The notes below the pieces were generated by a model. The model ran no database searches, was not told the origin of the DNA, and saw only the letters and a list, made by a program, of their open reading frames with translations. A DNA stretch of 64,000 nucleotides, from IMG/VR virus record IMGVR_UViG_3300025529_000271; one strand, 5' to 3'. The stretch comes from an uncultured virus (IMG/VR IMGVR_UViG_3300025529_000271) (lineage: Duplodnaviria > Heunggongvirae > Uroviricota > Caudoviricetes). Made by a program: the position numbers and the translations under genes. Shown here piece after piece: positions 1 through 64,000 of this stretch (position 1 is its first letter; each line of letters opens with the position of its first letter).

Positions 1-207
1 ATGAGTCGGACTCAGAAAGTTACGGTTGTGGTATCAGGTGACCCACGTGAGTTAGCACCGACTTGTCTTCATCTTGCTCGTTTGGGGGTCGAGTTTTCTT
101 TCAAGATGTGGGAAATTAAGGCGAAGTTTGATACGCTTCAACAGGCAGAGAAGTTTGCTCGTAGTGTGCAGGATTCGCCGGGGTTGTATGCTACGGTCAA
201 GCATTAA
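1..207 (+). CDS. hypothetical protein (68 aa)
   Basis: ATG at window start, open to TAA, same strand as all neighbours. Confidence 0.6.
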   Translation: MSRTQKVTVVVSGDPRELAPTCLHLARLGVEFSFKMWEIKAKFDTLQQAEKFARSVQDSPGLYATVKH

Positions 208-393
208 ACCCATTAGGTTAGACGCATGAAGATCGATGGGGTAGTAATTTCATAGCTTTGAATTTTTGGCGCACTATCTCGAATCGTTTAAGGAAGCAGA
301 TTATTCTTAGAAGGCTTTCCTTTTACGAGGCGGTAGTGCGCTTTCGTACTTTATAGGTGTTTTCTAATACTTTACAATAGGGAGGTGGTTTAA

Positions 394-708
394 GTGGATG
401 CGGATACGAAATCGGTTTTGTTGGGGGTCATGTTGTTGCTCACGCTTGTACTATTTGTTATGGGGGTGGTGGGGTACTTCATTTACCGCCTAACTAAGTC
501 TAAGCGTGACCGTTATTGGGAGCAACTTGAAAACAATCATGAAGATCTATCACGACTAGCGCAGGAAACGGGAATGGGTGCTTATCAGCTTTTAGGAGTC
601 GGTCGCCACCACATGGAGCGAGCGAATCTTTTTTGGGCTTCAACGATTTGGTTCTTATTTGGGGCACTTTTTCTTATTATGGATCTAATCGTGTGGTTAG
701 GATTTTAA
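394..708 (+). CDS. small membrane protein (2 TM segments)
   Basis: GGGAGGTGG RBS before GTG; hydrophobic N- and C-terminal stretches. Confidence 0.7.
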   Translation: MDADTKSVLLGVMLLLTLVLFVMGVVGYFIYRLTKSKRDRYWEQLENNHEDLSRLAQETGMGAYQLLGVGRHHMERANLFWASTIWFLFGALFLIMDLIVWLGF

Positions 709-735
709 TTTTATAATTCATGAGGAGTGAGACTA

Positions 736-1107
736 ATGGGCGTATCCTCTAAGAAAATGAAGGAGTTAGTAGACAATTTGCACAGCCGAGGGATTACTCC
801 GGTTGTAGACACGGAGTTTGAGTATCTTTCGTATGATTATGCGAAGAAGGCTCCGTTGTACAATCACTTTCTTCAGTTGAAGGATGCAGGAGAGCTTCCT
901 TCTTTCGATAATTTGTCGGATGAGCAGTTGCGGCATTTGTGGTACATCGAGTGCATTTCAGACGCGGGGATCGCACGTCTTTTTGGAGTTTCAAAGAGCA
1001 AGGTTACGCGTCGGCGCACGGAATCCAACATTACGACTGTAGGTTGTTTGAAGCATGCGGCTGAGTTTGGTGGGAAATCTATGATTTGCTACCCGCTTCC
1101 GACATAA
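736..1107 (+). CDS. putative HTH DNA-binding protein
   Basis: GAGGAG RBS before ATG 736; C-terminal SDAGIARLFGVSKSKVTRRR is helix-turn-helix-like. Confidence 0.6.
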   Translation: MGVSSKKMKELVDNLHSRGITPVVDTEFEYLSYDYAKKAPLYNHFLQLKDAGELPSFDNLSDEQLRHLWYIECISDAGIARLFGVSKSKVTRRRTESNITTVGCLKHAAEFGGKSMICYPLPT

Positions 1108-2575: not shown

Positions 2576-2582
2576 TAGAGTT

Positions 2583-3553: not shown

Positions 3554-3901
3554 ATGAATGCTTTTGTAGTTGAAGGTACTGCGGATGAGCAACACTTAAA
3601 AACGCTTTATCCTGACTTGTACTGTGTGGTTACACATGGTACACGCATGAATAATCGGGTAAAGTCGCTTGTTGAGAAGGCTTTGCAAGAGTGCGATCAG
3701 GTTTTTCTGCTCTCCGATCCCGATGAGGCTGGAGATGCGTTGGCGCATATGGTCATGCGTTTCTTCCCTACGGTAGTGCGTATTCCTTTGAACCCGGAAC
3801 GGTGCAAAGTGCTGAATGCACGGGGCAACCGTTACTCTTACGGGGTCGAGCATGCGGACTTGGAGTATCTGAAGACTGTCTTGCAAGCCTATGTTAAGTA
3901 A
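3554..3901 (+). CDS. standalone Toprim domain protein (RNase M5/YusF-like)
   Basis: VVEGxxD, SDPDEAG, GVEHA motifs. Confidence 0.8.
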   Translation: MNAFVVEGTADEQHLKTLYPDLYCVVTHGTRMNNRVKSLVEKALQECDQVFLLSDPDEAGDALAHMVMRFFPTVVRIPLNPERCKVLNARGNRYSYGVEHADLEYLKTVLQAYVK

Positions 3902-9546: not shown

Positions 9547-10203
9547 TTGTTATTGGTCAATTACGCCTTGATCGGGCAACAAGTCGATTTTTCCCAGCGG
9601 CATAAATTTAAGACTGTAATAGGTTCTCGTCGAGCGTCTGTTGCACTTCGAGATGTTGCGAGTTATTTTTCGTGGAAATTTGTTGAATCTGGTTTTACTG
9701 TCGTCTCAGGCTTGGCGGAAGGAATCGATACAGCGGCACACTTAGGTGCATTAAAATCGGATGCAACTCATCCGAGAACGGTAGCCATTGTTTCAACTGC
9801 ACCTTCCGAGTTGTACTATCCAGCGACTAATCGTCAGTTGGCAGAGCGGATCAAGCAACATGGTGCTATTCTGCATCCGTTTGTTACTAAAGCGAAGTGG
9901 GAGCGGGGTGTGCGGTTTGGGCAACCACAAAAGCGCTTGGTTGAGCGGGATATTCTGCAAGCATCTTTGTCTTCGGAAGTGTACGTCGTGTCAGATGACC
10001 ACGTCATCTCTGGTGGTAGTCGTTGGGCGTTGAATTACGCCAAATATCTGGGGACACCCATTTATCGAATTGATTCTGCAGGTGATATTCACTCTGACCC
10101 AGATTTTGTGGTGGAAAAGAAGCTTATTCCTTGGGAGTTGGAGTTGGCGTGGGAAGATTTGACCCGTCTTCTTCAGCATCCTTGCACTTACATGAGACGG
10201 TAG
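9547..10203 (+). CDS. DprA/Smf family (SLOG) protein, Rossmann core only
   Basis: VIGSRRAS, VVSGLAEGIDTAAHLGAL, YYPATN, ERD..ASLS, SGGS motifs. Confidence 0.85.
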   Translation: MLLVNYALIGQQVDFSQRHKFKTVIGSRRASVALRDVASYFSWKFVESGFTVVSGLAEGIDTAAHLGALKSDATHPRTVAIVSTAPSELYYPATNRQLAERIKQHGAILHPFVTKAKWERGVRFGQPQKRLVERDILQASLSSEVYVVSDDHVISGGSRWALNYAKYLGTPIYRIDSAGDIHSDPDFVVEKKLIPWELELAWEDLTRLLQHPCTYMRR

Positions 10204-11479: not shown

Positions 11480-11568
11480 GTTTATTTTTGACTTAATTTG
11501 CATTTTTACAGAAATAAACCAACTGGCTTGATACCACTGTAACTTCTTAAAAATTAGAGGTGGTATCT

Positions 11569-14208
11569 TTGCCGAGTACTAGGTTTATTAACGAGATTCG
11601 TTCGGCGGATTCGGAGAAACGTGTTGAGGCGATTTATCACGAAGCCCTTCGCAAAGGAATCAGCGATCTCGGCGGGCACGTTCAAAGCATCAAAACTCTT
11701 TACAATACGGATGGTATTTTGGATGGCGAGTTTTTGTTCGATGGCGCACCTCGCGTCTTTCGCATTATCATTGAGACCAAAATGGACGAATCGTTTACCA
11801 ATGCAGTCGTTCGTTCGAAAGTGTTGGCGCAGGTTGTCTACTATCTGAAGCGCTTTGAAGATGCCGGGGATGAACTTCCGAACATCATCTTTGTTGGTGA
11901 TCGTAACGAGTGTTTTGTTGTGCATATCAACTATCTGCAAAATTACCTCAATTTCAACTGTGATTGGTCTATCGCTCCGAGTCTTGCGGGTTCTCGAAGT
12001 GTGGAATTGGTCGAAGCACTTACATCGGATGAAGTCCTTCAATCCAACTGTTTCGTTCACATCATTGACGATAATTTTGACTTTGAGGATGTTGTGAAGG
12101 ATATCTGGCGGTTGGTCACGGGTGTAAAGACGAAATCTCGCATCACCGAGCGGAATATCTCTAAGATTTTCGAGCGTTTTTCTATGCACATCTTGAAACG
12201 CAAGTCTTCGGGGGAATCACTTTATACTCCACGTGAGCAAGTTGAGTATTTCATGAAGCTCGTACTTCATCAAGACGACTGTTATTTGCATCCTCGCAAA
12301 AAGGGTCGTGCCGTTATAGATGGGGTAGAGGTGCAAGTCAACTCGGATGCTTTTTCGTCCTTTACCAATTACTATGAGTTTAACTATAACGCCCTTGAGA
12401 AGAAAGAGTTCACGGCTATCGCTGACCGACTGATCGAGGATTCTGATCGTCGGCGTAAAGGCGATTTCTACACACCTACGGTTTGGGTAGATGAAGCGAA
12501 CAAGATCCTTTCTCAACATCTTGGGGCGAATTGGAAGGATGAGTACGTGGTTTGGGACTGCGCGTGGGGTACGGGAAACCTCACTCGCGATTATAATTTT
12601 TCGGATCTGTATTGTTCGACTTTGCATGACCATGATCTTGAGATCGGTAAAAAGTATAATCTTAACGCCCAAGCCAAGTTTCAATACGATTTTCTCAATG
12701 ACGATGTTGAGTTGTTTGAGGAGCTTCGGCAAAAAGTTGCTAAAGGGTATAATCTTACCGAGAGGGACTTTTATGGTTCCAAGCTGTGGCAGAAAGCTCC
12801 TAGCTTGATCAGGGGTATGCTTGAGGGTAAGAAGTTGTTGTTCTTCATTAATCCACCGTATGGGACAAGCGGGGAAATGTCTTCCGCGATTACGGGCAAA
12901 GAGAAGAAAGTGGGTATCGCCGCAACCAAACTTGCTGAGTTCATGCGTCGAGACAACATGGGTGCGGCGACGCAACAGCTTTATGCACAGTTCATTTACC
13001 GTATTTACACCCTTAAACTCTTGTTTGGGGTATCGGTGACGCTTGGACTTTTTAGTCCACCTCTTTTTATGACGGGCAACTCGTTCCGGCTTTTCCGGGA
13101 TAATTTGATTTCTAAGTTGACTTTGATCGACGGTATGGTTTTTCAGGCTTCTGAGTTCGCGGACGTTTCTTCCAACTGGGGTATTTCGTTTACTTTATGG
13201 ACGGATGAGGAACCTACCAGTAGCACTGGGGTTTATGTGCTTCCAGTGAAAGAGGGTCGTGTAGGACAGCCCGTAACTGTAGGCACTAAGCGATTTTATA
13301 GCGTGGATAATGAGACGTCCGCTACTCTTTGGTGTAAGGAGCTTTTGGTTGGGCTTCGGACGTTCGATGCTCCGCAGTTGAAAAATGCCATCAATGTGAA
13401 GGAAAAGGGTGTCGGACGTCTGTGTGAAGGTGCTATGGGGTATATCTTTACTGCCGCTTCGAATAAGGTTGAGCATAACAACTCTTATGTCTGCATTGTC
13501 AGCAGTGCTTTTGCAAATGCACATGGCTGGCAAATCGTCGAAGGGAATTTCATGCGGAACATGGCGTATTTTACCGCTCGAAGACTGATAACGGGGAATT
13601 ATGCGGCTTGGGTTAATTCTAAGGATGAGTACCTCAAGCCGAATACTTCGCATCCACTGTATTCTCAGTGGGTAGCGGACGCCATTGTGTATGCATTGTT
13701 CAATTCTGCGTCTAATCAATCTTCGTTGCGCGGTATTGAATATAAGGATGCTTCTCATGACATTTATAACCATTTCTTCTTCATGTCTCGGGATGACCTG
13801 CGTCAGCTTGCTCTTGGGGGTAACCCGAATGATGAGGTCTATCATGATCTTGAAGTACATGGTCAAACTGAGCGTTTTGTCTATGAGAAGCTCCAGCAGG
13901 TCAACCTCTCGCCCGACGCCCATGCGGTTTTGAATATGGCGCGTCAACTTGTTTGTGACTCCTTTAAGTACCGCAAGTTGTTCCATCAGGAACACCCCGA
14001 GTATCATATCACTGCGTGGGACGCGGGTTGGTATCAAATTAAGGGGATGTTGCGGAAGTATATGCCGGAGCAGTTGAGGGAGTTCAACGCGCTCTATAAA
14101 ACCTTTGAAGACCGTATGCGTCCGTTTGTTGTTGAACTTGGTTTTCTGTACGACTATCCGGGTTATGAGGAAGACCTTCAAAAGCATCCCATTCCTAGCG
14201 TTAATTAA
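11569..14208 (+). CDS. type IIG-like restriction-modification enzyme (nuclease + N6-adenine methyltransferase + TRD)
   Basis: N-terminal DG...IIIETK nuclease-like motif; GDFYTP, motif I VWDCAWGTGNL, motif IV FINPPY. Confidence 0.85.
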   Translation: MPSTRFINEIRSADSEKRVEAIYHEALRKGISDLGGHVQSIKTLYNTDGILDGEFLFDGAPRVFRIIIETKMDESFTNAVVRSKVLAQVVYYLKRFEDAGDELPNIIFVGDRNECFVVHINYLQNYLNFNCDWSIAPSLAGSRSVELVEALTSDEVLQSNCFVHIIDDNFDFEDVVKDIWRLVTGVKTKSRITERNISKIFERFSMHILKRKSSGESLYTPREQVEYFMKLVLHQDDCYLHPRKKGRAVIDGVEVQVNSDAFSSFTNYYEFNYNALEKKEFTAIADRLIEDSDRRRKGDFYTPTVWVDEANKILSQHLGANWKDEYVVWDCAWGTGNLTRDYNFSDLYCSTLHDHDLEIGKKYNLNAQAKFQYDFLNDDVELFEELRQKVAKGYNLTERDFYGSKLWQKAPSLIRGMLEGKKLLFFINPPYGTSGEMSSAITGKEKKVGIAATKLAEFMRRDNMGAATQQLYAQFIYRIYTLKLLFGVSVTLGLFSPPLFMTGNSFRLFRDNLISKLTLIDGMVFQASEFADVSSNWGISFTLWTDEEPTSSTGVYVLPVKEGRVGQPVTVGTKRFYSVDNETSATLWCKELLVGLRTFDAPQLKNAINVKEKGVGRLCEGAMGYIFTAASNKVEHNNSYVCIVSSAFANAHGWQIVEGNFMRNMAYFTARRLITGNYAAWVNSKDEYLKPNTSHPLYSQWVADAIVYALFNSASNQSSLRGIEYKDASHDIYNHFFFMSRDDLRQLALGGNPNDEVYHDLEVHGQTERFVYEKLQQVNLSPDAHAVLNMARQLVCDSFKYRKLFHQEHPEYHITAWDAGWYQIKGMLRKYMPEQLREFNALYKTFEDRMRPFVVELGFLYDYPGYEEDLQKHPIPSVN

Positions 14209-23995: not shown

Positions 23996-24322
23996 ATGGC
24001 TACATCGCCCATTTCGCCCATTTCTCACCGCGAGGTGAAAATCGCTTTCAACAAGCCCATGCATCACCCGAGGCAAGGTACGTATTATCGCGGTTGTTTC
24101 ACTCTTGATTTGGACACTTTTATAAAGTTCGTCGGCAACCCTACCAATCCGCGCTCGATGCTTTATCTCGATCCGCGAACCAAGCGAAACTGTTACTTCT
24201 TGAACTTGATGGGGCGCGACGCACTGGTGGACTTTTTGCGTAAGCACAATATTCCTTTTAACGCAAACCGAGCTTTCGCTCCCGGTGTCAATTACTACAT
24301 CGACGTGCGTTTTCCCGAGTGA
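23996..24322 (+). CDS. hypothetical protein (108 aa)
   Basis: AAAGGAG RBS; C-ending codon bias. Confidence 0.75.
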   Translation: MATSPISPISHREVKIAFNKPMHHPRQGTYYRGCFTLDLDTFIKFVGNPTNPRSMLYLDPRTKRNCYFLNLMGRDALVDFLRKHNIPFNANRAFAPGVNYYIDVRFPE

Positions 24323-24465
24323 TTTCCTTGCGGTTCCTTCACCGCCCTTTTCTCCTATATTCGCCCGTGTTCAAATTAGGACTTATCGCAAATCAACTTG
24401 ATTGGCAGATAAGTTCAAGTGTATAAGGGCTTAAAAATAGAGAGAAATAGGGCGGTGAATCATCT

Positions 24466-25536
24466 ATGCTTCGCATCATAGCCACTTTTCGTCCTCTCGG
24501 TTCCAAGCAGATCGTGGGGTACCGTTTGTTAGTCGAGGACAAAGCTACCTTAGCCAAGCTTCACGCCAGCGGCTATCACTTCAGGGGTAATGTTGGCGAC
24601 TTTTCGCCGCAGGAGACCTTTTTCTTGCTGGTCAACTTTGGTTCGATCAATGCCAGCGTCACCAATAATCAAATCACCTTGCTGGACGGTTCGATGGACT
24701 CGCTCCCGATTCTCAATCCGCAGACTGGACAATGCACGGACAATAACAATATTATCGTCCTTGCGGCGATTACCTATAATGATGAGGTCATCGGTTATCG
24801 GGTTTGCAACTACACGGGAGCTATCGCGCAACTGCGCTATAACGACTTGCTGACTAAAGCCAAGCAAGGTTTCGCGAACGCCAAGATTGTTCATCGCGAC
24901 GGGAAAGCCTTCATCTCCGCGATCAGGGGTACTTTCCCGACGACTCCGCTTCGCACCAAGGATGACCATATGCCCCGCGCTGTGATACCGACGGGTTCCA
25001 ATTATCAAACCCTTGTCGATACCACAAAACAGCGTGGAAACGTTAGCATCCCGGTGAAGTATTATGCTGACCCATCTCGCATGCAGACCGATCCGCCCAC
25101 CAGCACAGGGCATGTGGCACTTACCGATAAGGGTGAAGTGGTCTATCGGTATCGAAACGAGCATGGTGACCCGAAGTTTGCGGTTGTTCCTAAGAACGTT
25201 TTTAATACCAACTTCCAGTTGGGGGTAGCGTCGAGCGTCACTAAGCAGGAACTTGCCAACACCCCTCCCGCTCCGGCACCCACGCGAACCAACACCAAAT
25301 ACCTGCGCGAGGTCACGGAGAAGTATGGGATTGGTACCACCCTTAATGTTTTGTTCTTTCAAGGCACGACCAAACTTGCCGGACAGGTGCGCTTGAATCG
25401 CGGGGTAATCCATTTGCGGTATCGCCCAGATCCGAATGCGGATTTCAAGGTTGTGCAAGTCTCGGAGGCGGACTTCGATAAACACTTCCGTATTCAGGGG
25501 GTAATTCAGCCTAAGCCGCAACCGAAGTCATCTTGA
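24466..25536 (+). CDS. hypothetical protein with two N-terminal DUF3892-like repeats
   Basis: duplicated IIA...IVGYRL and VLAAI...VIGYRV...NAKIV...FISAI pattern. Confidence 0.6.
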   Translation: MLRIIATFRPLGSKQIVGYRLLVEDKATLAKLHASGYHFRGNVGDFSPQETFFLLVNFGSINASVTNNQITLLDGSMDSLPILNPQTGQCTDNNNIIVLAAITYNDEVIGYRVCNYTGAIAQLRYNDLLTKAKQGFANAKIVHRDGKAFISAIRGTFPTTPLRTKDDHMPRAVIPTGSNYQTLVDTTKQRGNVSIPVKYYADPSRMQTDPPTSTGHVALTDKGEVVYRYRNEHGDPKFAVVPKNVFNTNFQLGVASSVTKQELANTPPAPAPTRTNTKYLREVTEKYGIGTTLNVLFFQGTTKLAGQVRLNRGVIHLRYRPDPNADFKVVQVSEADFDKHFRIQGVIQPKPQPKSS

Positions 25537-25763
25537 CTTTCCTTCCCACTTTCGTTTTCCACCCCTCCCCATAGTGTGGGGGGTATTTAAGCGAGTAGAC
25601 GGAAAAACTAAGGACTAAGCGAGTAAAAATCTCGACTTTCCGTTGAACAGGCTTTCTTTATACCGACTATTTTGTTATAATAGGCTCATCAGCTTCCGAG
25701 CTAACGCTAAGTTATACCGAGTCTCTCGGTTATAATAACGCTGTGTTGAAGGAGGGTTTTTCA

Positions 25764-27464
25764 TTGGACATGCATACCGTCTACTCGCTTCAGAATCGGA
25801 ACTTCTCGGATGCGGTTCTGGCGCTGGACACGCCGCTTGTTCGGCAACTTTCGCTTCTCGCACTCCAATCGGGGAAAGAGGGCAAAATTGTCAGCTTCAT
25901 TATGCGTGACCGCGTCTCGAATCGTGGGGAGGTTAAGGAGCGGGGTATTCCGGCATCGGAGAAATCGGTCGTCGATATCTGCAAGCTCACGCCTTTGGTC
26001 GGGGGTAATGGCGCAAGCACGCTGTTGGAGGAGATCGCGCTTTATCGCGCCAATACCATCGACTTCAAGCCTTCGAAGGGCGACCTGCGTTCTTATGCGG
26101 AACTGTTGATGGCGGACTATCTGATGTCCACTGCTCTCTGCTATGTTGAAATCGCCAAGCAGGGGCAAATCCGCGATAAGTTCTTGCTCACGCGCAACCC
26201 GCAAATCGCCGCTATTCTGGCGGACAAGTTGGAAAGCCCGCAGGACGTTGCCAAGTATCAACGCGCTCTTGTTACTTACACGTCGCACTACGAGAACAAG
26301 AAGCTCCCGTATCTTAAAATCAACCTCAAGAAAACGGGCTTTTCGGTCACGGTTCCGAAAAATCCGCTGGACTTTTTGTTCCCGATGAAGATCACACCGC
26401 TCTTTTTTATCACCACTTTTGTGCAAGAGCTGACGAAGGTTCTGCAGGAGAAGATGGTGCGGGTCACCTTCATCAAGGATGACCTGTATGAGCGTGAGGT
26501 GGTCACCACCCTTAACCGGGAAATCCTCGGCAAGTATTATGACGAGGATTTCATTCAGGTTATGTTCTCGAATGTGGGCACCAACCTCGGTCGGGGGTAT
26601 ATTAAAGTGCCGGAACTCGGCAGTTCCAAGTATGACGCCACGGGCACCCGTTCCATTAATTTGGCGCGGATCACCAGTGTCAGCTTGGTCGAGACCTTCG
26701 ACACGCGTTTCATCAATGTTGACCTGTCGAAAGTCCAGCCCGCTTTCGAGCATATGATCAGCACTTGCACTCGCCCGGAAATTCTGGCGAAGGTTTATCG
26801 GGATTTGACAGGGAATCCGCCGCAAAACACCAATATCTTCGTGTTGAAACAGCACTTGACGGACGAAATTCAGCGTATTGTGGCGGCAACCAGCACGACG
26901 GGTCTGCGTGACTTGCATCTGTATATGATCGCCAATCCGAATATTTTCGTCAGCTATAACAGCGGGGTACCGATCAACTTCCTCAGTATGATTGACCCGG
27001 CTCTCGGTGCGGCGCATCAACCGACTGGTGCGTTTGGAGTGGATGCTCCGATTCGGACTGGGGGTAATCCAATCAAGCCGCCTTCGGACGCTCCGGTACC
27101 TCCGATGCCCGCGACCGCCGCACCGAATGCGGCTCCGATGTGGGGAGGGGTACCGCGCTCATTGGGTGGTGCGGCTCCAACGGGGCAGAAGCCTGTGAAC
27201 CCGTATCAAGCACCGAAGCCCGCGCAAGCGGCTCCTGCGGCTTCGGGAGCGGCTCCGTTTGTGGTTCCTGCGGCGATGGCGGCAAATGCCCCTGTCACTC
27301 CGCAAAACGCGCAAGGCGCTCCAAGCGCCCCGTCCGCTCCGTCTGTTTCGGCAACGCCACCATTCTCGCTTGGCGCGGCTCCGAAGTCGCTCGGCGGTGC
27401 AACGCCGACGACAACGCAGGATGCGGCGAAAGCGGTATCCAAGCTCCCGCCGCAGTTTCGTTGA
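25764..27464 (+). CDS. uncharacterised core protein A1, putative SH3/Sm-like (WYL_2-like) barrel plus P/A-rich tail; paralog of 27692-29386
   Basis: GAAGGAGG RBS; VRVTFIKDDLYEREVVTTLN...GTRSINLARITSV. Confidence 0.7.
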   Translation: MDMHTVYSLQNRNFSDAVLALDTPLVRQLSLLALQSGKEGKIVSFIMRDRVSNRGEVKERGIPASEKSVVDICKLTPLVGGNGASTLLEEIALYRANTIDFKPSKGDLRSYAELLMADYLMSTALCYVEIAKQGQIRDKFLLTRNPQIAAILADKLESPQDVAKYQRALVTYTSHYENKKLPYLKINLKKTGFSVTVPKNPLDFLFPMKITPLFFITTFVQELTKVLQEKMVRVTFIKDDLYEREVVTTLNREILGKYYDEDFIQVMFSNVGTNLGRGYIKVPELGSSKYDATGTRSINLARITSVSLVETFDTRFINVDLSKVQPAFEHMISTCTRPEILAKVYRDLTGNPPQNTNIFVLKQHLTDEIQRIVAATSTTGLRDLHLYMIANPNIFVSYNSGVPINFLSMIDPALGAAHQPTGAFGVDAPIRTGGNPIKPPSDAPVPPMPATAAPNAAPMWGGVPRSLGGAAPTGQKPVNPYQAPKPAQAAPAASGAAPFVVPAAMAANAPVTPQNAQGAPSAPSAPSVSATPPFSLGAAPKSLGGATPTTTQDAAKAVSKLPPQFR

Positions 27465-27691
27465 TCGGAAGGGGAGGAAGACCCTCCCCTTCTTACCTAG
27501 CGGGGTACTGTCCATTTGGTACGGAAATATTCGAATCCTGTTTATGTTACATTTTTCCCGATGGGACTTATCGTTTTGTTCACCCTTTATTTTTCGTCGC
27601 ATAAGTTCTTGTACCCTAAGTATAGGGACTAGGACAAGCGGGTATACTCAAAGCAAGGAGTTAAAATTTTCAGTAACGGAGGTTGTGTTTC

Positions 27692-29386
27692 ATGTCGCTT
27701 CATCCTCAAGTTCGGGACATTTTCTACCCGAATGTCGCCAACTCCCCGTATGCGGATTTGTCGGCGGTCGCTGGCAACGTTATGTTGGCGGCGTTCCAAG
27801 GTCGGACTTCGAGCTTCTTCCACGACTTTGCGGGGTACTTCAACGCCGTTCCCGGCGCGGCGAATTATCTCGCTAAGCTCGGACGCAACACCATCGGTCA
27901 ACTGCACCAAAACAATGGTTGGAAGGGCGATGTTGAGAAGCTTCTTGAGGGGGTAACTCCGGCGTATGCCGCTATCTTCCAAGCGCTGTCCGATCTGATT
28001 TTTGTGGGTCTGGACACTACAAAGGAAGGTTACCCGACGGCACTCTACACTCGTTCTTTCCACGTCATCAAGCGCATGGTGGATGCGGGTATGGTGCAAC
28101 CGGACAACGTGAACAAGGTTATGAAAGACCTGACGGGCACCAAAACAGCAAACGGTGTATCGGAAGGAACCTTCTGCGTGGTGCGTTTGGACTTCGAGCA
28201 GTACGTAAACGGTATTCCGACTTTCAAGCTGACGGTTCCGCGTTCCAATCTCAAGGTTCTTGGCAACGATGCGGAGTATATGCTGGTACCGCTCATCTTC
28301 TATGCGGTTTTCAGCCAAATCCTGCAAAATGCTACGGCGGAACAGGCGTTTGAGTTCGAGAAGACTTCGGTCACGGGTAACATTCGGCACCAAGCCACCA
28401 TCAGCCCGAATGTGGTCAAGTTGGTGTACGCCAATTCTGACCCGGAGGACGTGGAAGCTAAGATTCGTCGTATTCGTCCGGGGTACGATCCGATCCGACA
28501 ACGCTATACGCTCTATGATCTGGAATCGTCGGTCTATTCGCTCGGACTTGCATCGTTCCGTCCTGAGATGCTTAACTACGTGAAGATTATCAATCCGCAT
28601 TCCATCAATACCGCTTGCCACAATGTGGACTTTGATGTTCTGCGGCAAATCTTCGCTACCCGCATTCGCGCTCTCAAGGCGGCGCAACTGGACGCGTTCA
28701 AGTACATTGATCTCTCCAGTTACGCCAATATGACCGACAAGCAGAATGCTCTTATCGAGCAGGCGGAAAAAGAGGACAATCGCAAACTGCTCTCGCTCAT
28801 GCAAGCGCACCCGGAAATCTTCGGAGACATCAATGAAGCCCTCGAAAAGCGTCGTCGGATTATGCCGAAGTTCCTCAAGGGCTTCCAGCCGGTAGAACTG
28901 CCGAACACCGAGCAAGAGCGCGTCGCCCTTCTGCGCGATCTCTTATCCAAGGGGGTAGTGCAGTTCGTTACTACGACGAAAGACGGTCGCGTGTCGGGTA
29001 AGCTGGCTTCTAACAATTCGAAGGTGTTGGAGCGTATCTACGGTAAGGACTACGTCCAAAAGTACGAGACGGTTAGCCTTCGAATCAAGGAAGTCAAAGC
29101 CGCTATTGAACGCGGTGAGGTCAAGAGCCGGAAGGAAGCAGAGGAGTTGGCGGTTAAGTACAATATCCTTCCTTCCATCGATGCGACCGAGTATCTCAAG
29201 GGCGGTAAAGCGACTCTTGCCGCACTTGACACCGCGATCAAGGAGTTGGAGGAAAAGTCGGCTTCCCGTACTCGCAACCCGGCGTATGTGCTGTATCGTA
29301 ACCTGAAAGCGGAAAATAGCGACAATTTCTATGGTCAGGTTAACGTAAACTCGCTTATCTCGGTGGAGTTCCGGGCTTACGAGTGA
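27692..29386 (+). CDS. uncharacterised core protein A2 with repeated putative SH3/Sm-like (WYL_2-like) barrels
   Basis: GGAGG RBS; YDLES...LASFRPEML and GVVQFVTTTKDGRV motifs. Confidence 0.7.
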   Translation: MSLHPQVRDIFYPNVANSPYADLSAVAGNVMLAAFQGRTSSFFHDFAGYFNAVPGAANYLAKLGRNTIGQLHQNNGWKGDVEKLLEGVTPAYAAIFQALSDLIFVGLDTTKEGYPTALYTRSFHVIKRMVDAGMVQPDNVNKVMKDLTGTKTANGVSEGTFCVVRLDFEQYVNGIPTFKLTVPRSNLKVLGNDAEYMLVPLIFYAVFSQILQNATAEQAFEFEKTSVTGNIRHQATISPNVVKLVYANSDPEDVEAKIRRIRPGYDPIRQRYTLYDLESSVYSLGLASFRPEMLNYVKIINPHSINTACHNVDFDVLRQIFATRIRALKAAQLDAFKYIDLSSYANMTDKQNALIEQAEKEDNRKLLSLMQAHPEIFGDINEALEKRRRIMPKFLKGFQPVELPNTEQERVALLRDLLSKGVVQFVTTTKDGRVSGKLASNNSKVLERIYGKDYVQKYETVSLRIKEVKAAIERGEVKSRKEAEELAVKYNILPSIDATEYLKGGKATLAALDTAIKELEEKSASRTRNPAYVLYRNLKAENSDNFYGQVNVNSLISVEFRAYE

Positions 29387-34642: not shown

Positions 34643-34672
34643 AGGGAGGATCGAATTTCGATCCTCCCTTTT
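34643..34672 (+). terminator. intrinsic terminator
   Basis: AGGGAGGATCGAA-t-TTCGATCCTCCCT plus TTT. Confidence 0.85.
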
Positions 34673-34762
34673 CGTATGCCAATTTTCCGGTATTTTCGCA
34701 ACTATTTAAGTGTACTCAGCGTATAAGGGTTAAGATGATGTTTGTGAGGGGAGGGAGTCTCG

Positions 34763-35769: not shown

Positions 35770-36135
35770 TTGCTGGTTGCTTTTGATTCTCGTACAGGAA
35801 ATGTGGCGCGGTTTATTAAGAAGTTGGATTTGCCCGCCGTTAAAATCACCCCGGAGTTGGTGATTGAGGAGCCATTCGTTTTGGTTACCTATACCACGGG
35901 TTTTGGGCAGGTTCCGGTAAGCACTGCTGAGTTTCTGCGGAATAACCATCAGCGTCTGATGGGGGTAGCGTCCAGCGGAAATCGTAACTGGGGTGCGAAC
36001 TTTGGTAAAGCCGCTGATCGGATCGCAGACTTTTATCATGTAAGGGTAGTTTCCAAATTTGAATTAAACGGAACGCTCTATGATGTTGAGCGTTTCCATA
36101 AGGAGGTTGAATCTCTTGTCGTCGCAAATTTCTGA
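35770..36135 (+). CDS. nrdI: class Ib ribonucleotide reductase flavodoxin NrdI
   Basis: FDSRTGNV.RF, TYTTGFGQVP, GVASSGNRNWG..FG.A, KFELNG; GGGAGG RBS before TTG 35770. Confidence 0.95.
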   Translation: MLVAFDSRTGNVARFIKKLDLPAVKITPELVIEEPFVLVTYTTGFGQVPVSTAEFLRNNHQRLMGVASSGNRNWGANFGKAADRIADFYHVRVVSKFELNGTLYDVERFHKEVESLVVANF

Positions 36136-38251
36136 AGCTCCTGCAGTCAACGAAACGGACTTCCGTTTCATTGAGTTGAACAACATGATCACTCAACGCG
36201 GCGCGGACGGGTTTTTTCAGCTCGATAAAGACCGCGAAGCGATGGAGGAGTATCTGCGTTATGTCGACGCAAAAACGGTCAAGTTCAACTCCGATTTCGA
36301 GCGCGTGGTGTGGTTGATCGAGAATGGGTATTACGAGGATATTCGGAAATACTACTCCGATCATTTCATCATTGAAGCTCTGCATCAAGCTCGCAGTATC
36401 GATTCGCGTTTCTGCTCCTTCACGCAGGTATCCAAGCTGTGGGAAGAGTATCTCCTGCGTTCGGATGATCGGCAGTGGTTCCTTGAGGATTACCATCTTC
36501 GGAACGCCATTACTGCCCTTTCCATCGCTCGGGGTAACAAAGCTCGCGCGGTGGAGTACATTCGTGAGATTGGTACTCGTCGTCTGCAACCTGCAACCCC
36601 GGCGTACTCGAATTCGGGTAAGGCTAAGGGTGGTGAACGCGTTTCCTGTTTCTTGTTGACTTTCGATGACACAACCAACTCCATCGAGTACACGCTCGGT
36701 TGTATGGCTCAACTTTCCCGTATTGGCGGTGGAGTAGCTTTCGACCTTTCGAACATTCGGGCTTCCGGCGATCCGGTAAACGGGCGTAAAGGCACAGCTA
36801 AAGGGGTAGTCGGACTCGCTAAACAAGCTGAGCAGAAGTTTTTCTATTACGACCAAGGCGGACTCCGCAAAGGAGCTGGAGCGGGGTACCTTAACTGCTT
36901 CCATTTGGACATTATCCCGTTCCTTGATACGAAAAAGGTTACGGCTGATCAGAATGCTTTGCTCAAGCACCTCTCCATCGGGGTAATCATTCCGAAGAAG
37001 CTTTACGATCTGGCGGAAGCGAATCAAGAATTCTACGCTTTCAGTCCTTACGATATTCGCAAATATTACGGTATGCGCATGACGGACGTTGACTTTGATG
37101 TTTACTACGACACCTTTGTCAACGACGAGCGCATTCGGAAGAAGAAAATTATGAATGCCCGCGATTTTCTTGTAAAGATCGCGCAAATTCAAATTCAGTC
37201 GGGGTACCCGTATATTTTCAATATCACCAATGCGAACAAGCGTCATGCTTTGCATCGGGTTGGGCGTATCCTTATGACCAATCTCTGCACCGAGATCATG
37301 CAGTTGCAAGAAGTATCGGAAATCACCGATTATAACGTCGAGGACATCATTCGTCGTGATATTTCTTGCGTCCTTGCGTCGCTCAACATCACCAATGTCA
37401 TGGAATCCAAGTCGTTGGCGGATACGGTGCGCGTTGCTATGTTCCTGCTTTCGGACGTATCTGATGCGTCGGATATTGTTAACGCACCGGGGGTACGCAA
37501 AGCCAATCGTGAACTGCATTCGGTCGGTTTGGGTGCGATGGACTTGCATGGTTTCTTGGCGAAGAACCATATCGCTTACGAATCCTTTGAGGCGTTGGAT
37601 TTCGCTCGCACCTTCTTCATGATGATGAACTATTATTCGCTCGACGCGTCGTCTGACGTCGCTAAGGATCGGGGTAAATCCTTCGATGGTTTCGAGCTTT
37701 CCACGTATTATACGGGCGAGTACTTCGAGAAATATTTCATCAATGACTATCGCCCGAAGACGGAAAAGGTTGCCAAGCTTTTCGAAGGTATGCATATCCC
37801 GACGCCGGAGGATTGGAAGAAGCTGGCGCAGAAGGTTAAAATGCAAGGGCTGTACAACGCTTACCGTTTGGCTATCGCACCGACGCAGTCCATTTCGTAT
37901 GTGCAAAACGCAACGAGTTCGGTCATGCCGATTCAGGAAGTAATCACCAAGCGTTCGTATGCCAAGTCCACGACGTATTATCCGGCTCCGCATCTTACGC
38001 CGCAAAATCAATTCTACTTCAAGTCGGCGTACAATATGGACATGCGGAAACTGCTTGATCTTATCGCGGTTATTCAAGAACACGTGGATCAAGGGGTAAG
38101 CACGACATTGTATGTTCCGCAGGATATTAGCACGGCGGAGTTGGCAAGCTATTATGTTTATGCTAACAAGCTCGGTTTGAAGTCTTTGTATTACACTCGG
38201 AATCGGCGTAAGAACATCGAAGATGAACTTTGCGTCAGTTGCGCTGTCTAA
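36116..38251 (+). CDS. nrdE: class Ib ribonucleotide reductase alpha subunit
   Basis: QPATP, VSCFLL, TNLCTEI, SCVLASLN, IAPTQSIS, KSLYYTR, C-terminal CxxC; no ATP cone. Confidence 0.95.
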   Translation: MSSQISEAPAVNETDFRFIELNNMITQRGADGFFQLDKDREAMEEYLRYVDAKTVKFNSDFERVVWLIENGYYEDIRKYYSDHFIIEALHQARSIDSRFCSFTQVSKLWEEYLLRSDDRQWFLEDYHLRNAITALSIARGNKARAVEYIREIGTRRLQPATPAYSNSGKAKGGERVSCFLLTFDDTTNSIEYTLGCMAQLSRIGGGVAFDLSNIRASGDPVNGRKGTAKGVVGLAKQAEQKFFYYDQGGLRKGAGAGYLNCFHLDIIPFLDTKKVTADQNALLKHLSIGVIIPKKLYDLAEANQEFYAFSPYDIRKYYGMRMTDVDFDVYYDTFVNDERIRKKKIMNARDFLVKIAQIQIQSGYPYIFNITNANKRHALHRVGRILMTNLCTEIMQLQEVSEITDYNVEDIIRRDISCVLASLNITNVMESKSLADTVRVAMFLLSDVSDASDIVNAPGVRKANRELHSVGLGAMDLHGFLAKNHIAYESFEALDFARTFFMMMNYYSLDASSDVAKDRGKSFDGFELSTYYTGEYFEKYFINDYRPKTEKVAKLFEGMHIPTPEDWKKLAQKVKMQGLYNAYRLAIAPTQSISYVQNATSSVMPIQEVITKRSYAKSTTYYPAPHLTPQNQFYFKSAYNMDMRKLLDLIAVIQEHVDQGVSTTLYVPQDISTAELASYYVYANKLGLKSLYYTRNRRKNIEDELCVSCAV

Positions 38252-40490: not shown

Positions 40491-40565
40491 GGAGTTTTCG
40501 CCGGACACCAGTTATATGGTATAGTTTTATGACTATTTACGGGGTATTTTTTGGAGGTGTCCTTT

Positions 40566-42026
40566 TTGGCGGAACTTACGTTGCCATTTCATAGAAAATA
40601 TCGTCCTCGGACTTTGGCGGAGTATGTAGGGAATGACCGTGTTAAGGAGCGCAGTTTGAATGCGGTTTCGGCATCGGTGCGTCCGCAGGTACTACTGTAT
40701 ACCGGACCCGCAGGTTGCGGTAAGACTACGATGGCGCGTCTTATGGCGAAGGAATATGTTTGTGAAAACCGCGATCCGGTTAAAGGGGCTTGCGGCGAGT
40801 GTTATTACTGCCGGGAGATGGATTACTTTATCGAAACTGGGGATGCGGGTAACCTCATGAACGTGCAGGAAATCGACGTTACCGATAGCAACAAGCGTCA
40901 AGATATTGACCGTTTGCTTGAGGATGCGTCTCAGCCCGATTTGGCGGGGAACTGGAAGGTCTATATTCTTGACGAGTGTCATATGATGACAGCAACTGCG
41001 CAGAACCGTTTGCTTAAGAACCTTGAAGAGCCTGCGGAAAAGGTACTTATGATCCTTTGTACCACGAACCCGGAGAAGCTTTTGGACACGATTCTCTCCC
41101 GCTGTCAGTACACATTCAAGGTCAAAAAGCCGGAGTTGCAGGATCTCATGGGGTTGTTGATTCGCGTCTGCAAAACAGAAGGTGTGGAATTTGACACAAA
41201 AGCCCTCAATCTGGTTTGTATCGCCGGGGATTTTGTACCACGTAAGGTACTGACTTCCTTGGAGCGGGTTGTACGTCAAGCGGGAAAGGTGACGTACTCT
41301 GTTACGCGGGAAGTCCTTGATATGACGTCGACAAAGTACTTTTTTGACTTCTATAAGTACTTGTTGGCACCTCAAATTGACATAAAGGGGTATATCACCT
41401 TCATCGCTAGCATCAAGGCGACAATGGATTTGGGGCAGTTTGTGGATGACCTTCTCGCTTTCACCATGCGTGGTTTGTATATTTACAGTGGGGTAAATAC
41501 CGAGTCATTGGACGAGTCGGAAATTGAGAATTACGTTAAGCTCTTTTCACAGTTCTCGACTGCTGATTTGGGAAATACTCTTGCAACTTTGCTGGATATT
41601 AAGTTTACTGGGGATCACGAAGTGCGTCTTATCCTTTTGGGTTATATGGGGCTTCGTGCAACGGTAGAGCCTGAGCTGTCGATGTCTCCCCAACCCGTTA
41701 AGGATGGTGGGACTACTCTGCAAAAGCGCACTCGTCAGCGTTCGGAGCAAGCAAAAAATATGGCGAAAATGATTTTGGAGAATGTCACTCCGGGTGAAGA
41801 GCAGACTTACGGTGAGCGTCTACACCAGCTTAGGACAACTATGTCGCAAGCGGAGTTCGAACAGTTCATTAAGCAGGGGACTCAACTTGTTGGTGGTGAT
41901 CAGCTTGCGGATACCTTCCAAGGTATGAAGGTTGACCCTACTCGTCAAGTTCCTAACCAATCGGCACCTTCGGTTCGTGATGAGCGGCTTGAAAGGTCTG
42001 GATTTTCGGGCTTTCCCGGTGTTTAA
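40566..42026 (+). CDS. dnaX: DNA polymerase III gamma/tau clamp-loader subunit
   Basis: RKYRP, Walker A GPAGCGKTT, Zn motif C...CGECYYC, ILDECH, LLKNLEEP, TILSRC. Confidence 0.92.
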   Translation: MAELTLPFHRKYRPRTLAEYVGNDRVKERSLNAVSASVRPQVLLYTGPAGCGKTTMARLMAKEYVCENRDPVKGACGECYYCREMDYFIETGDAGNLMNVQEIDVTDSNKRQDIDRLLEDASQPDLAGNWKVYILDECHMMTATAQNRLLKNLEEPAEKVLMILCTTNPEKLLDTILSRCQYTFKVKKPELQDLMGLLIRVCKTEGVEFDTKALNLVCIAGDFVPRKVLTSLERVVRQAGKVTYSVTREVLDMTSTKYFFDFYKYLLAPQIDIKGYITFIASIKATMDLGQFVDDLLAFTMRGLYIYSGVNTESLDESEIENYVKLFSQFSTADLGNTLATLLDIKFTGDHEVRLILLGYMGLRATVEPELSMSPQPVKDGGTTLQKRTRQRSEQAKNMAKMILENVTPGEEQTYGERLHQLRTTMSQAEFEQFIKQGTQLVGGDQLADTFQGMKVDPTRQVPNQSAPSVRDERLERSGFSGFPGV

Positions 42027-61630: not shown

Positions 61631-61643
61631 GGGTGGCGATAAA

Positions 61644-63137
61644 ATGGTGCATCTCGTCAGTGCGACGGTAACCCTTGAGGGGGTAAACTGTGTTAAATCT
61701 CTGACAGAACTGCCAGAGGATATCGAGTCTATCGATTGTTTGGTATATCACTCGTCTGTTGATTCGGACGTTAACATAGCGATGTATTTGAGTGGGCTTA
61801 AAGGTAAGGGTTTGAAGATTCTGTATATCAACAAGGTCTTTGAACCCTTGCTTTTGGTTATCTTTTCAGCACTTTCTGCGGATTTTCATGACTATGAGGA
61901 CGCTCTTTATGACAAGTCTTTGTTGGACGAACTTATCGCAGACTATGGGAACTACGGTATCCCCTTGAACAACTTTACGGAGGACATTTCGGTACTTCGC
62001 AAGTTTATCTCCACGGTTGGGGGTAACGATTCCTCTAAACGGAATGAGCTGATCGCCCGCAAGGTTAACTTGGCTCTCGATAACATCACTGAAGCCTTGA
62101 CTGTAGCTTCAAACTCCAATCAGCGGGTTGTTCATGCTTTAAGTGAAGCTAAGGTCATGCTCGATAGGTTAAAGGATCAGTACAAGCAGGTTTACAATAC
62201 CCTGCTTGAAGCACAGGAAGAGGTGCAAAAGCTCGACTCCCATTATGGGGAGGAGATTTCCTCTTTGCAGTCCAGTCACTTGGAGCTTTCGCAAACCATC
62301 AAGGAATATGAAACTCAGCTCTCGGAGAAGGATAAAGAACTTGCCGAGGTCAAGGGGCAGTTGCAGGAGGCACATGATAAGCTGGCTCCTAGTGAAGAGA
62401 AACTCAGGGAATATGAGGCTAGACTTCGTGAACTGGAACTGAAGCTTCGGTTGGAGAAGGAAGCTAAGGAGGAAATGGAGAAACAGCTTCGGTTGGAGCA
62501 ACAGAAGAACGTCACTAGCACCACTTTCCTCTTTCCTACGGTTATGATTCCGGTTACGACCCCGCATGTCATGTATGTTGAGGTCTTTTCACCTATCAAC
62601 TACCTCAACACTTTCATGATTATGTTCCAGCGTTGGTTGAAATACGAAGCAACTAAGCGGGTCAACAGTAAACTTCTCTTTGTCTACCCGCAACTTAAAA
62701 AGTATACGGAGCGGTACAAGCATCTTCCGCTTCTCTCCAGTTCGGGGGTAGCAACGATTGAAAGTGTGCTGAAGGAGTCTGACTATTATATCACTTATGA
62801 GCCTTATAAGCGCGTTCTCGACTTGTTCTTCCAACAGCCCAACGTGAATCTGTATATTGTTGTAGACTATTTGATGGGGGATCAGCTCTTGAAAGGTTCC
62901 CGTATGACGCGTTTTGGGGTAACTCGCGGTCAGGGCATCCCGGATTCGTCTATTCCCGAGACGCATTACATTCGCTCTTTGACTGCGAAGAGTGGGGTAA
63001 TTAAGGTCATGCACGTCAATGAGTGGTATCGTCCCGGAGGAGAACCTGCATCGGAAGCGGAACGAGTCAATGCGTTTATGAATAAGCATCGAAATATGTT
63101 TGAGTTGATTAGAAGTCATATTTTCGGGAGTGATTAA
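61644..63137 (+). CDS. coiled-coil protein
   Basis: central heptad-rich region. Confidence 0.75.
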   Translation: MVHLVSATVTLEGVNCVKSLTELPEDIESIDCLVYHSSVDSDVNIAMYLSGLKGKGLKILYINKVFEPLLLVIFSALSADFHDYEDALYDKSLLDELIADYGNYGIPLNNFTEDISVLRKFISTVGGNDSSKRNELIARKVNLALDNITEALTVASNSNQRVVHALSEAKVMLDRLKDQYKQVYNTLLEAQEEVQKLDSHYGEEISSLQSSHLELSQTIKEYETQLSEKDKELAEVKGQLQEAHDKLAPSEEKLREYEARLRELELKLRLEKEAKEEMEKQLRLEQQKNVTSTTFLFPTVMIPVTTPHVMYVEVFSPINYLNTFMIMFQRWLKYEATKRVNSKLLFVYPQLKKYTERYKHLPLLSSSGVATIESVLKESDYYITYEPYKRVLDLFFQQPNVNLYIVVDYLMGDQLLKGSRMTRFGVTRGQGIPDSSIPETHYIRSLTAKSGVIKVMHVNEWYRPGGEPASEAERVNAFMNKHRNMFELIRSHIFGSD

Positions 63138-63140
63138 CAC

Positions 63141-64000
63141 ATGTTGGGGCTTTGGGGTAAAGGTGGTTTCAGGAAGTATTGGAGGGAGACAATCTCCCTC
63201 TATGACGATATGTATTTTGCCGCGAAGACGAAGAACAACTCGGCGTTCGGGCGTGAGTTACCTCACGTTCCGGACAAAGTCGGGGTGGACTTCGTCGCGT
63301 CTTATGATGGGGAGAAAATGGTGTATTACTACGTTCTTAAGTCTTTTCCCCGTCATTTGCTTGCGGACTTTAAGGAAATCATTCGTAGCTGTTGTCGACA
63401 GGGGGTACGGGTGAATTTTATCACTACTTTTAAGCCCCACATGATCAACTGGAATTCTACGGAGATGAAGAACCGTTTGCGTGTCCTTTCTCGGGTTGAT
63501 GAGGAGCGGCAGAATAAGGAAGTCAATGCTTTTAACCTGCATAGCATTATTGGTACGATGGACAAGCAAGCTTGGATACGGGATTCCCTCTCTTATCTTT
63601 CCTTGGCGAGTGTGCGGAGAGGGCGATCCCTTTTTCGTCTTTCTATGCTTATGATGGTGTTGGGAGATCGTGGGGAAGACCTTGATATCAGTGTTCGGAG
63701 TATTGAAAAGGTGACCTCGGACTTGGGTTTGAACATGGAGCGTGTCCTTTATGATATCCCGGATGTTATTGGGCATTTCAGCCCGTACAAACGGATGTTT
63801 ACGAAGGAGTCTATGGCGATTATTCCCGAGTTGGTTATTACGGACGAGGTTGCTTCCCGTTTCAACACCTACGATCAGGGAACGCTCGGAGCGCTGGGGG
63901 TGTATGTTGGTTCGGACGTTTATTCGTTATACCCGGTATTGAAGCGTTTCAAAGCGCGGGATGACGCGGCTGAGGTTTGGCTTATTACAGCGGAAACGGG
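63141..64000 (+). CDS. VirB4-like ATPase, N-terminal part (runs off the window end; absent from the ORF track)
   Basis: manual translation open from ATG 63141 to the end, finishing GVYVGSDVYSLYPV...AEVWLITAETG, i.e. the start of a Walker A loop. Confidence 0.65.
   Translation, partial: MLGLWGKGGFRKYWRETISLYDDMYFAAKTKNNSAFGRELPHVPDKVGVDFVASYDGEKMVYYYVLKSFPRHLLADFKEIIRSCCRQGVRVNFITTFKPHMINWNSTEMKNRLRVLSRVDEERQNKEVNAFNLHSIIGTMDKQAWIRDSLSYLSLASVRRGRSLFRLSMLMMVLGDRGEDLDISVRSIEKVTSDLGLNMERVLYDIPDVIGHFSPYKRMFTKESMAIIPELVITDEVASRFNTYDQGTLGALGVYVGSDVYSLYPVLKRFKARDDAAEVWLITAET

Follow-up and report, generated by a model that had tools for sequence, protein, structure and literature searches.

A strand-polar hexamer, GGGGTA, as a candidate directional signal in a phage-like element

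Chi and KOPS/SRS are polar DNA words, and they reveal how enzymes that track along DNA are given a direction. To our knowledge, only a handful of such words are known, nearly all of them from cultured model bacteria. Here we analyze the hexamer GGGGTA, which is strongly enriched on one strand of a stretch of DNA from an uncultured virus, IMG/VR record IMGVR_UViG_3300025529_000271. The whole stretch, positions 1 to 64,000, is referred to below as the window. It belongs to metagenome contig Ga0207866_1000014 (273,468 bp) and corresponds by arithmetic mapping to positions 62650-126649 of that contig, reversed. Genes were called as longest open reading frames (ORFs). The 62 ORFs cover 89% of the window, and all of them are located on the + strand.

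The Chi words counted here for comparison are short and G-rich, like GGGGTA. PMC3784561 reports that phages without recombinases (lambdoid, T5-like and P1-like) over-represent Chi, with a median observed/expected ratio (O/E) of 3.1. According to PMC12315714, E. coli phage LLS carries 23 Chi sites, 20 of them in the active orientation; Chi in Pseudomonas phage MD8 is distributed 32:0 and is the top octamer there, but only the 43rd in the host; and published phage Chi arrays cluster near one end. GGGGTA resembles the arrays of LLS, MD8 and the lambdoid, T5-like and P1-like phages in being short, G-rich, far above expectation and in one orientation (20:3 and 32:0 in LLS and MD8). Phage Chi can top its word length in the phage but not in the host; similarly, GGGGTA leads the hexamers of the window without enrichment in candidate host genomes. 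Unlike GGGGTA, phage Chi is the host's known octamer and is found at 0.2-0.5 per kb near one end. GGGGTA is a hexamer, found at 2.7 per kb and uniform over 64 kb.

KOPS (GGGNAGGG, read by FtsK) and SRS (GAGAAGGG, read by SpoIIIE) are octamers with a chromosomal density of about one per 10 kb, and selection acts against copies in the wrong orientation. Like GGGGTA, they are G-rich, strand-polar and spread along the replicon, and they are read by a tracking motor. In contrast, the GGGGTA hexamer is about 30 times denser, its reverse copies are at chance, and no FtsK-like gene was found in the window. In the window, the SRS and KOPS words and the Chi words counted for comparison are neither enriched nor polar. 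DNA uptake sequences (DUS in Neisseria, USS in Pasteurellaceae) are, like GGGGTA, written into genes by codon choice, at about one copy per kb. Their density is usually ascribed to molecular drive rather than per-site function. They are 9-12 nt long and occur on both strands of bacterial chromosomes with a competence receptor, whereas GGGGTA is 6 nt long, polar at 17:1 and located in a phage-like element.

Full-text literature searches (GGGGTA alone, GGGGTA with AddAB, and TACCCC with primase) returned no paper that treats the word as a signal. A preliminary description of the same DNA had called GGGGTA a motif that its author did not recognize. We regard polar over-represented words in phage genomes as a known kind of feature, and GGGGTA itself as new as a signal.

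GGGGTA is distributed over the whole window, including a segment with little GC skew:
1..64000, + strand: field of GGGGTA, 170 co-oriented copies, mean spacing 374 bp, largest gap 1169 bp
24001..38000, + strand: low-skew segment (G 0.258, C 0.244), GGGGTA 41:1 compared to 3.8:3.1 expected, binomial p = 6e-10

The + strand contains 170 copies and the - strand 10. Base composition predicts 22.0 and 7.65, respectively. The + strand excess is 7.7-fold, and the reverse copies are near chance. In dinucleotide-preserving shuffles (n = 100) the count on both strands was 22.25±4.5 with a maximum of 33, and none reached the 180 observed. A maximal-order Markov model ranks GGGGTA first by z (10.0) among all hexamers, and GGGGT and GGGTA are the two top-ranked pentamers. 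The preliminary description had counted 30 forward copies in the first 10 kb, with reverse copies at 6092 and 8604. We obtained the same counts, and every forward position it had named is an exact GGGGTA on the + strand.

The + strand is G+T-rich, and its cumulative GC skew climbs without a turn over the 64 kb. The strand asymmetry of GGGGTA goes beyond composition over the whole window (p = 1e-12), and it is retained in the low-skew segment. The polarity is independent of GC skew.

All 18 one-letter variants of GGGGTA are present at 0.24-1.5 times expectation. Information in the eight positions around the word sums to about 0.2 bit, with weak preferences for G just before the word and T two bases after it. 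The flat flanks and the variant counts indicate that GGGGTA is a discrete hexamer, not a piece of a longer repeat. The copies are also more evenly spaced than random placement would produce. The coefficient of variation of the spacing is 0.73. Random placement gives 0.99±0.07, and such evenness did not arise in any of 5000 simulations. At random, a largest gap of about 2135 bp would be expected, and each 4-kb bin contains 8-16 copies. In our judgement, GGGGTA is among the cleanest statistical cases imaginable of a polar word.

Codon usage does not account for the enrichment. Genes contain 140 copies, and shuffling of synonymous codons reduces this number to 28.9±5.1 (z = 21.9). With an earlier gene list, 138 genic copies were counted, compared to 27.9±4.6 after synonymous and 16.1±3.9 after whole-codon shuffling. 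The genic copies are found in all three reading frames (63/45/32), and the 30 non-coding copies are denser (4.1 per kb) than the coding ones (2.5 per kb). Enrichment in every frame, within genes and between them, had been proposed from inspection of the sequence and is borne out by these counts. The preliminary description had also allowed that the enrichment might vanish once skew and codon usage were corrected for; it did not (z = 21.9, and 41:1 without skew). Among Gly-Val pairs, 63 of 135 are spelled GGG-GTA, compared to 7.6 expected from codon usage. The dipeptides Gly-Val and Trp-Gly are enriched 1.5 and 1.9 times in the window proteins. The word is carried by nearly half of the Gly-Val codon pairs, by other Gly contexts, by ribosome-binding sites and by intergenic DNA.

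A conserved gene shows how the copies are accommodated:
36080..38251, + strand: nrdE (Pfam PF02867, E = 2e-138), 8 copies of GGGGTA

The copies in nrdE are located at 36531, 36803, 36883, 36980, 37201, 37490, 37671 and 38093. Six of them had been reported before and are exact; those at 36980 and 37490 are additional. Comparison with 8 homologues indicated that they fall on conserved Gly residues, and that they were made by the choice of codons together with conservative replacements (I/L to V, A to G).

With a one-way gene layout, a polar hexamer alone means little. T7 and other phages were used as controls. In T7, the top polar hexamers (GCTGGT at 44:2, CTGCTG at 36:0 and others) are frame-locked (e.g. 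35/1/6 and 5/30/0), rare in non-coding DNA, and have z values of 1.5-6.1 in comparison with synonymous shuffles. A screen for dense polar hexamers covered 187 other phage loci, each 10 kb or longer, and many of them contain polar hexamers with O/E of at least 5. The 14 strongest candidates from these loci include nothing like GGGGTA, with z values of at most 8.4 and nearly all of the words frame-locked. The z of GGGGTA is 21.9-25, against at most 8.4 for the control-phage words.

These controls bear on the view that GGGGTA is a by-product of G/T skew, of codon or codon-pair usage, or of escape from Type III or Type ISP restriction, for which sites are head-to-head. Phages with a one-way layout do carry polar hexamers, but these are locked to one frame (0/30/0 in a further case), whereas GGGGTA is present in all frames and denser in non-coding DNA, and its polarity persists without skew. 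Restriction escape would explain the orientation but not the 7.7-fold excess, and it predicts a depletion of reverse copies that is absent. A by-product of this kind is highly improbable. We conclude that GGGGTA is selected at the nucleic-acid level and does not arise from composition or codons.

Other polar words were seen in the window and elsewhere. In the window GAAGAG is found 46 times on the + strand and never on the - strand. It is frame-locked as Glu-Glu (39/0/6), and codon usage explains it (z = 1.6). CTCTTC is wholly absent from the + strand, compared to about 14 copies expected by a hand estimate from composition. GCAGGTG and CAGGTG are polar (e.g. 32:2 and 33:3) in the unrelated IMG/VR loci L051, L070, L314, L335 and L283. 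Words of this type were rejected as a comparable signal, as they are frame-locked where tested (0/30/0) and probably reflect a codon-pair effect. CTGCCG (33:3) in locus L114 (Ga0075116_10000007, 116 kb) was rejected as a second polar word, as it is part of a repeat of at least 20 nt. Positions 1-22493 of L114 contain about 25 co-oriented copies of a longer repeat with AACTGCCGA and AGGCAGCTTAG. This repeat is denser in non-coding DNA (5.2 per kb) and is probably regulatory.

GGGGTA is shared by a close relative of the element. Contig Ga0310827_100034 (228,941 bp), from another assembly, is 97.8% identical over a shared 20 kb. It contains GGGGTA at 56:2 in 22.6 kb, with a z of 10.9 in comparison with synonymous shuffles. 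Blocks of about 2.5 kb that are private to either contig contain 8 and 6 copies and are as dense as the rest. The dense private blocks and the 56:2 ratio indicate that the word is a property of the gene pool of this lineage, not of one assembly. In the aligned part, 43 sites are shared, and 10 of 53 and 7 of 50 differ by point changes, mostly G/A. The 17 differences seen compare to about 12.9 expected, as 97.8% identity predicts that 12.5% of the sites differ (p = 0.12 and 0.44). At this divergence, the comparison of two contigs has no power to separate site gain from site loss.

More distant loci were found through an 882-aa protein of the window, described below. No comparable GGGGTA excess was found by GGGGTA counts and screening of top hexamers in 158 other loci that encode its family at 30-54% identity (L001-L160 minus the window's own locus and the 98% relative). 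Locus L086, whose 882-aa relative is 54% identical, has GGGGTA at 5:1 in 4.4 kb, compared to 0.4 expected. It was discounted as a second instance because comparable ratios, resting on very few copies, also arise in other low-GC loci, where G4/C4 runs are in excess on both strands.

The best explanation, in our view, is that GGGGTA is a directional signal on one strand, and that selection or recombination-linked drive acts on the word itself. The 17:1 orientation and the neutral reverse copies suggest a reader that moves along a single strand and always the same way. Reverse copies at chance level are what would be expected if the word has no activity when it faces the wrong way. We infer that the word is read on DNA rather than RNA, and by a helicase-nuclease of the host or the phage. 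That this reader is of the RecBCD/AddAB kind, and GGGGTA Chi-like, we give a probability of about 0.3. As in Chi, the word is over-represented beyond composition and codons (170 compared to 22; z = 21.9), and it is co-oriented with neutral reverse copies (170:10; 10 compared to 7.65).

Such a helicase-nuclease would enter at a DNA end and track along the + strand. GGGGTA would switch it from degradation to protection and recombination. A large phage, with ends or broken replication tails anywhere, would need the word everywhere and in one orientation. In addition, an allele with GGGGTA would survive end resection and be copied into alleles without it. Drive by end resection would explain why the codon opportunities for the word are nearly saturated.

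Several observations weigh against a Chi-like word. GGGGTA is uniform over the 64 kb, whereas phage Chi arrays cluster near one end, and its density is about five times that of Chi in LLS. Between the two related contigs, the conservation of single GGGGTA sites does not exceed the background. As all genes are on the + strand, DNA-level and RNA-level readings are inseparable in the window. No helicase-nuclease, recombinase or RecBCD inhibitor was recognized among the 63 window proteins, which represent 64 of the 273 kb and most of which have no match; they include a DprA-like protein.

The candidate host genomes also weigh against a Chi-like word. Similarity of ThyA and NrdE was used to choose them:
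19918-20793, + strand: ThyA, 291 aa

The nearest named relatives of ThyA are from Bacillales (54-57% identity). Those of NrdE are from Brevibacillus and Paenibacillus (53-56%), and Sphingobacterium is about 50% identical. The window also contains TTGACx-17-TATxAT promoter matches, strong GGAGG sites and matches to intrinsic terminators on the + strand. These features and the similarity of ThyA and NrdE are weakly suggestive of a Bacillota-type host. We examined 5 Paenibacillus/Brevibacillus genomes and 401 evenly drawn genomes of the same class, 405 distinct genomes of the Bacilli class in total. GGGGTA is not enriched in these 405 genomes, and in nearly all of them it has about half the count of the reversed control. 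Its density there is 0.1-0.55 per kb on both strands, compared to 2.8 per kb in the window. Only two of the genomes, G031 and G070, have GGGGTA above the reversed control, by about 1.2 times, and G070 (64% GC) has it below expectation. In 400 kb of a Brevibacillus chromosome, GGGGTA is found at 63:22, well short of the 158 expected, and its strand skew is normal for a word rich in G.

Equal enrichment in the host chromosome, which the preliminary description had considered, was found in none of these 405 genomes of the likeliest class, the host itself not being identified. The lack of enrichment weakens the case for a Chi read by a host enzyme, within a class assigned by ThyA and NrdE similarity. 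So far as it can be tested in the genomes compared, GGGGTA belongs to the element rather than to the host chromosome.

These results leave room for a reader encoded by the phage. GGGGTA would then be a private genome-wide polar code of the phage lineage, read on single-stranded DNA (ssDNA) by a phage-encoded helicase-nuclease, primase or translocase, which is a serious possibility although short of probable. About 700 copies in 273 kb, extrapolated from the density in the window, would mark self and direction, and the word may have been spread by biased gene conversion. We know of no phage-autonomous whole-genome directional word with its own reader. The preliminary description had likewise proposed a polar signal of the replicon's own. 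The signal is real and polar, selected at the nucleic-acid level and shared by the 98% relative; the translocase or primase proposed to read it is not recognizable in the window. Its further suggestion that the word marks transferred ssDNA found no support, and no conjugation gene was found among the window proteins.

If a host enzyme reads GGGGTA, the word reveals the Chi of an unstudied host, and the strategy of recombinase-free phages of loading Chi extends to giant phages. With a phage enzyme as its reader, GGGGTA would instead be a viral code of a new kind, for self and direction. GGGGTA is also a simple signature for finding relatives and host links in metagenomes. The hypotheses can be tested directly with oligonucleotides and one or two purified proteins.

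Instead of a Chi-like word, GGGGTA could be a lagging-strand primase site. T7 primase sites are 5'-GGGTC/TGGTC/GTGTC-3', and T7 makes pppACCC on 5'-GGGTC-3'. A phage primase would similarly read 5'-GGGGTA-3' with a cryptic 3' A, start opposite T and make pppACCCC. By chance the hexamer is too rare for this role (about 1 per 2.9 kb), and it must be enriched to reach Okazaki spacing. The observed spacing, evener than chance, does suit Okazaki fragments, and T7 carries its three primase pentamers at a similar density on a single strand (161 in 39.9 kb). The strand with GGGGTA is rich in G+T, as is usual for the lagging-strand template of forks that move in the + direction, and the reverse copies of the word are neutral. 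However, the T7 sites themselves are not enriched (GGGTC 39:55, TGGTC 79:62 and GTGTC 43:42, compared to 32-39 expected), and we know of no genome with enriched primase sites. As described in PMC2978363, DnaG of Bacilli starts at the middle base of CTA/TTA, with a cryptic third base, and zinc-finger mutants of the T7 primase switch from GTC to GTA or GTG. As a primase site, GGGGTA would resemble those of T7 and Bacilli: its 3' GTA is compatible with a cryptic base, synthesis would start opposite T, and the primer would be C-rich like that of T7. Unlike GGGGTA, known primase sites are 3-5 nt long and neither enriched nor polar in the genome, as tested in T7.

Two proteins of the window are relevant to priming and replication:
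3554..3901, + strand: Toprim-only protein, 115 aa (PF01751; phrog_18535 'primase', E = 6e-23; TIGR00334 RNase M5, E = 6e-8, below cutoff)
40551..42026, + strand: DnaX-like clamp loader (PF13177, E = 2e-33; phrog_5846, E = 3e-54)

The clamp loader indicates that the element brings part of its own replisome, which is in favor of a primase site. No primase was recognized in the window, however. The 115-aa Toprim protein looks more like RNase M5 than a complete primase by its profile matches, and no zinc-finger protein adjoins its gene. On balance, we consider a primase site rather unlikely.

The word could also guide a translocase in the manner of KOPS/FtsK or SRS/SpoIIIE, with a pump of the phage or the host reading direction in segregation, packaging or DNA clearing. 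A short, polar, G-rich word over the whole window is what such a guide would look like. Its wrong-way copies should be selected against, but the reverse copies of GGGGTA are not depleted (10 compared to 7.65). GGGGTA is about 30 times denser than KOPS and SRS on chromosomes, and the KOPS and SRS words are rare in the window (6:2 and 3:0). Among the 63 window proteins, which represent 64 of the 273 kb, no recognizable translocase, FtsK/SpoIIIE family member or complete primase was found. We consider a translocase guide unlikely.

A sequence-specific DNA enzyme is encoded in the window, together with two neighbors:
9547..10203, + strand: DprA-like (ShosA-like) protein (PF02481, E = 2e-22; TIGR00732, E = 2e-19; PADLOC ShosA, E = 2e-24)
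10246-11112, + strand: nucleotidyltransferase with weak MntA/PDC-S09 matches, directly upstream of the 882-aa gene
11560..14208, + strand: 882-aa MmeI-like protein, putative single-chain restriction-modification enzyme or N6-adenine methyltransferase, candidate reader or writer

The 882-aa protein combines an N-terminal PD-(D/E)XK motif, motifs I and IV of a gamma-class N6-adenine methyltransferase and a C-terminal target-recognition domain in one chain. In an alignment of 13 sequences (A1), D51...E72-x-K74, DCAWGTG and NPPY are invariant or nearly so. The predicted structure has a predicted local distance difference test (pLDDT) score of 82, and its top folds in the PDB are BpuSI, DrdV, PglX/BrxX, MmeI and CamA. 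The matches to BpuSI, DrdV, MmeI and PglX have E values of 4e-8 to 7e-6, and their template modeling (TM) scores are low (about 0.2), with the domains placed differently. Searches of Pfam, NCBIfam and PADLOC gave no match for the protein of the window, and 1 of 13 family members has a faint match to PF02384. The family (about 820-880 aa) has 1,503 representatives at E <= 0.001 and is encoded on many IMG/VR contigs, 29 of them longer than 100 kb and reaching up to 536 kb. Motifs and model identify the protein as an apparent MmeI-like single-chain restriction-modification enzyme, from a family that has no Pfam model. It is the only recognizable sequence-specific DNA enzyme in the window and an unproven candidate for acting on GGGGTA.

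As such, the enzyme could methylate the single A of GGGGTA on one strand as a label of self or strand. The PD-ExK, DxAxGTG and NPPY motifs fit this activity, and the fold is like that of BpuSI, DrdV, MmeI, PglX and CamA, which recognize asymmetric sites of 5-7 bp and modify a single strand. GGGGTA is asymmetric and has one A per strand. However, restriction-modification sites are normally avoided, not multiplied, and the 158 other loci that encode the family have no comparable enriched polar hexamer, as tested for the 14 top candidates. A methylation target is in our view doubtful.

The DprA-like protein is a possible ssDNA or recombination mediator, by its family matches. ShosA is a component of the Shosta defence system. 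The DprA/ShosA-like protein, the nucleotidyltransferase and the 882-aa gene may form a defence or counter-defence cluster.

Finally, GGGGUA every 375 nt or so of mRNA could be a mark at the level of RNA or transcription, by which a phage factor would tell phage transcripts, or the non-template strand within RNA polymerase, from those of the host. The word is on the coding strand of all 62 genes, and 49 of them contain at least one copy. It is located no more than 20 nt upstream of the start codon in 11 of the 62, where it could double as a ribosome-binding site. It also follows two strong promoter matches within 13 nt:
33708..33767, + strand: promoter and hairpin, a sigma-70/sigma-A-type match (TTGACT-17 nt-TATTAT) followed by a hairpin in which the forward GGGGTA at 33749 is joined by a reverse one at 33762
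43806-43834, + strand: second strong promoter match, followed by GGGGTA at 43841

On the other hand, the word is not a Shine-Dalgarno look-alike. GGAGGT, AGGAGG and GGGGTG, which should pair equally well or better, are present at only 1.06-1.5 times expectation. As canonical Shine-Dalgarno words are near expectation, 16S rRNA pairing is not what is selected. GGGGTA has no position bias inside the 62 genes, and 13 of them lack it, compared to 14.5 under a Poisson distribution. Three copies are located in the interval 32866-33743, which separates a terminator match from the strong promoter match that comes after it, both predicted from sequence. An 8-fold enrichment of a hexamer across mRNAs has no precedent known to us, and a mark of this kind seems unlikely.

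Upstream of the promoter match at 33708-33736, positions 33460-33660 of the + strand form a GC-rich, ORF-poor region of about 200 nt with 3 GGGGTA copies. It matches no Rfam family and could be a structured RNA or a regulatory region.

The 63 window proteins were scanned with Pfam and PHROGs, and NCBIfam and PADLOC were also used. The recognizable genes encode NrdE, NrdF, ThyA, the DnaX-like clamp loader, the DprA/ShosA-like protein, a Macro domain protein, a GNAT protein, an amidoligase, the nucleotidyltransferase, YdjM and the small Toprim protein. Most of the large proteins, including one of 1857 aa, have no family match in these four collections, and no capsid or terminase gene was identified in the 64-kb window. 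We call the element a phage-like replicon of at least 273 kb, mainly because the family of the 882-aa protein is found on many IMG/VR contigs.

No exact match to the window was returned from the viral_contigs and genome_contigs collections, and megablast of the window gave no match to phages or plasmids. By tblastn, cultured phages contain no match to the 1857-aa and 573-aa proteins, and plasmids none to the 781-aa protein. Searches of IMG/VR for closer relatives with the 1857-aa protein, the clamp loader and the ThyA alignment returned none above 52% identity. ESM Atlas look-ups for classifying the element gave no usable match, and Rfam and tRNA scans of the window found nothing.

The closest relatives of the window's ThyA are 60-70% identical, 291-296 aa long and located on metagenome contigs. 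Cellular ThyA proteins (264 aa), which come next at 54-57% identity, are shorter by about 27 aa, and the window's protein looks like a phage-lineage ThyA with an insertion. A block at 24001-32000 has a GC content of 0.50-0.52 and almost no GC skew, and it encodes proteins of 356, 573, 567 and 497 aa without matches. The AlphaFold model of the 573-aa protein has a pLDDT of only 50. This block may contain highly expressed structural genes. GGGGTA is as dense there as elsewhere or denser, with 16 copies in 24001-28000.

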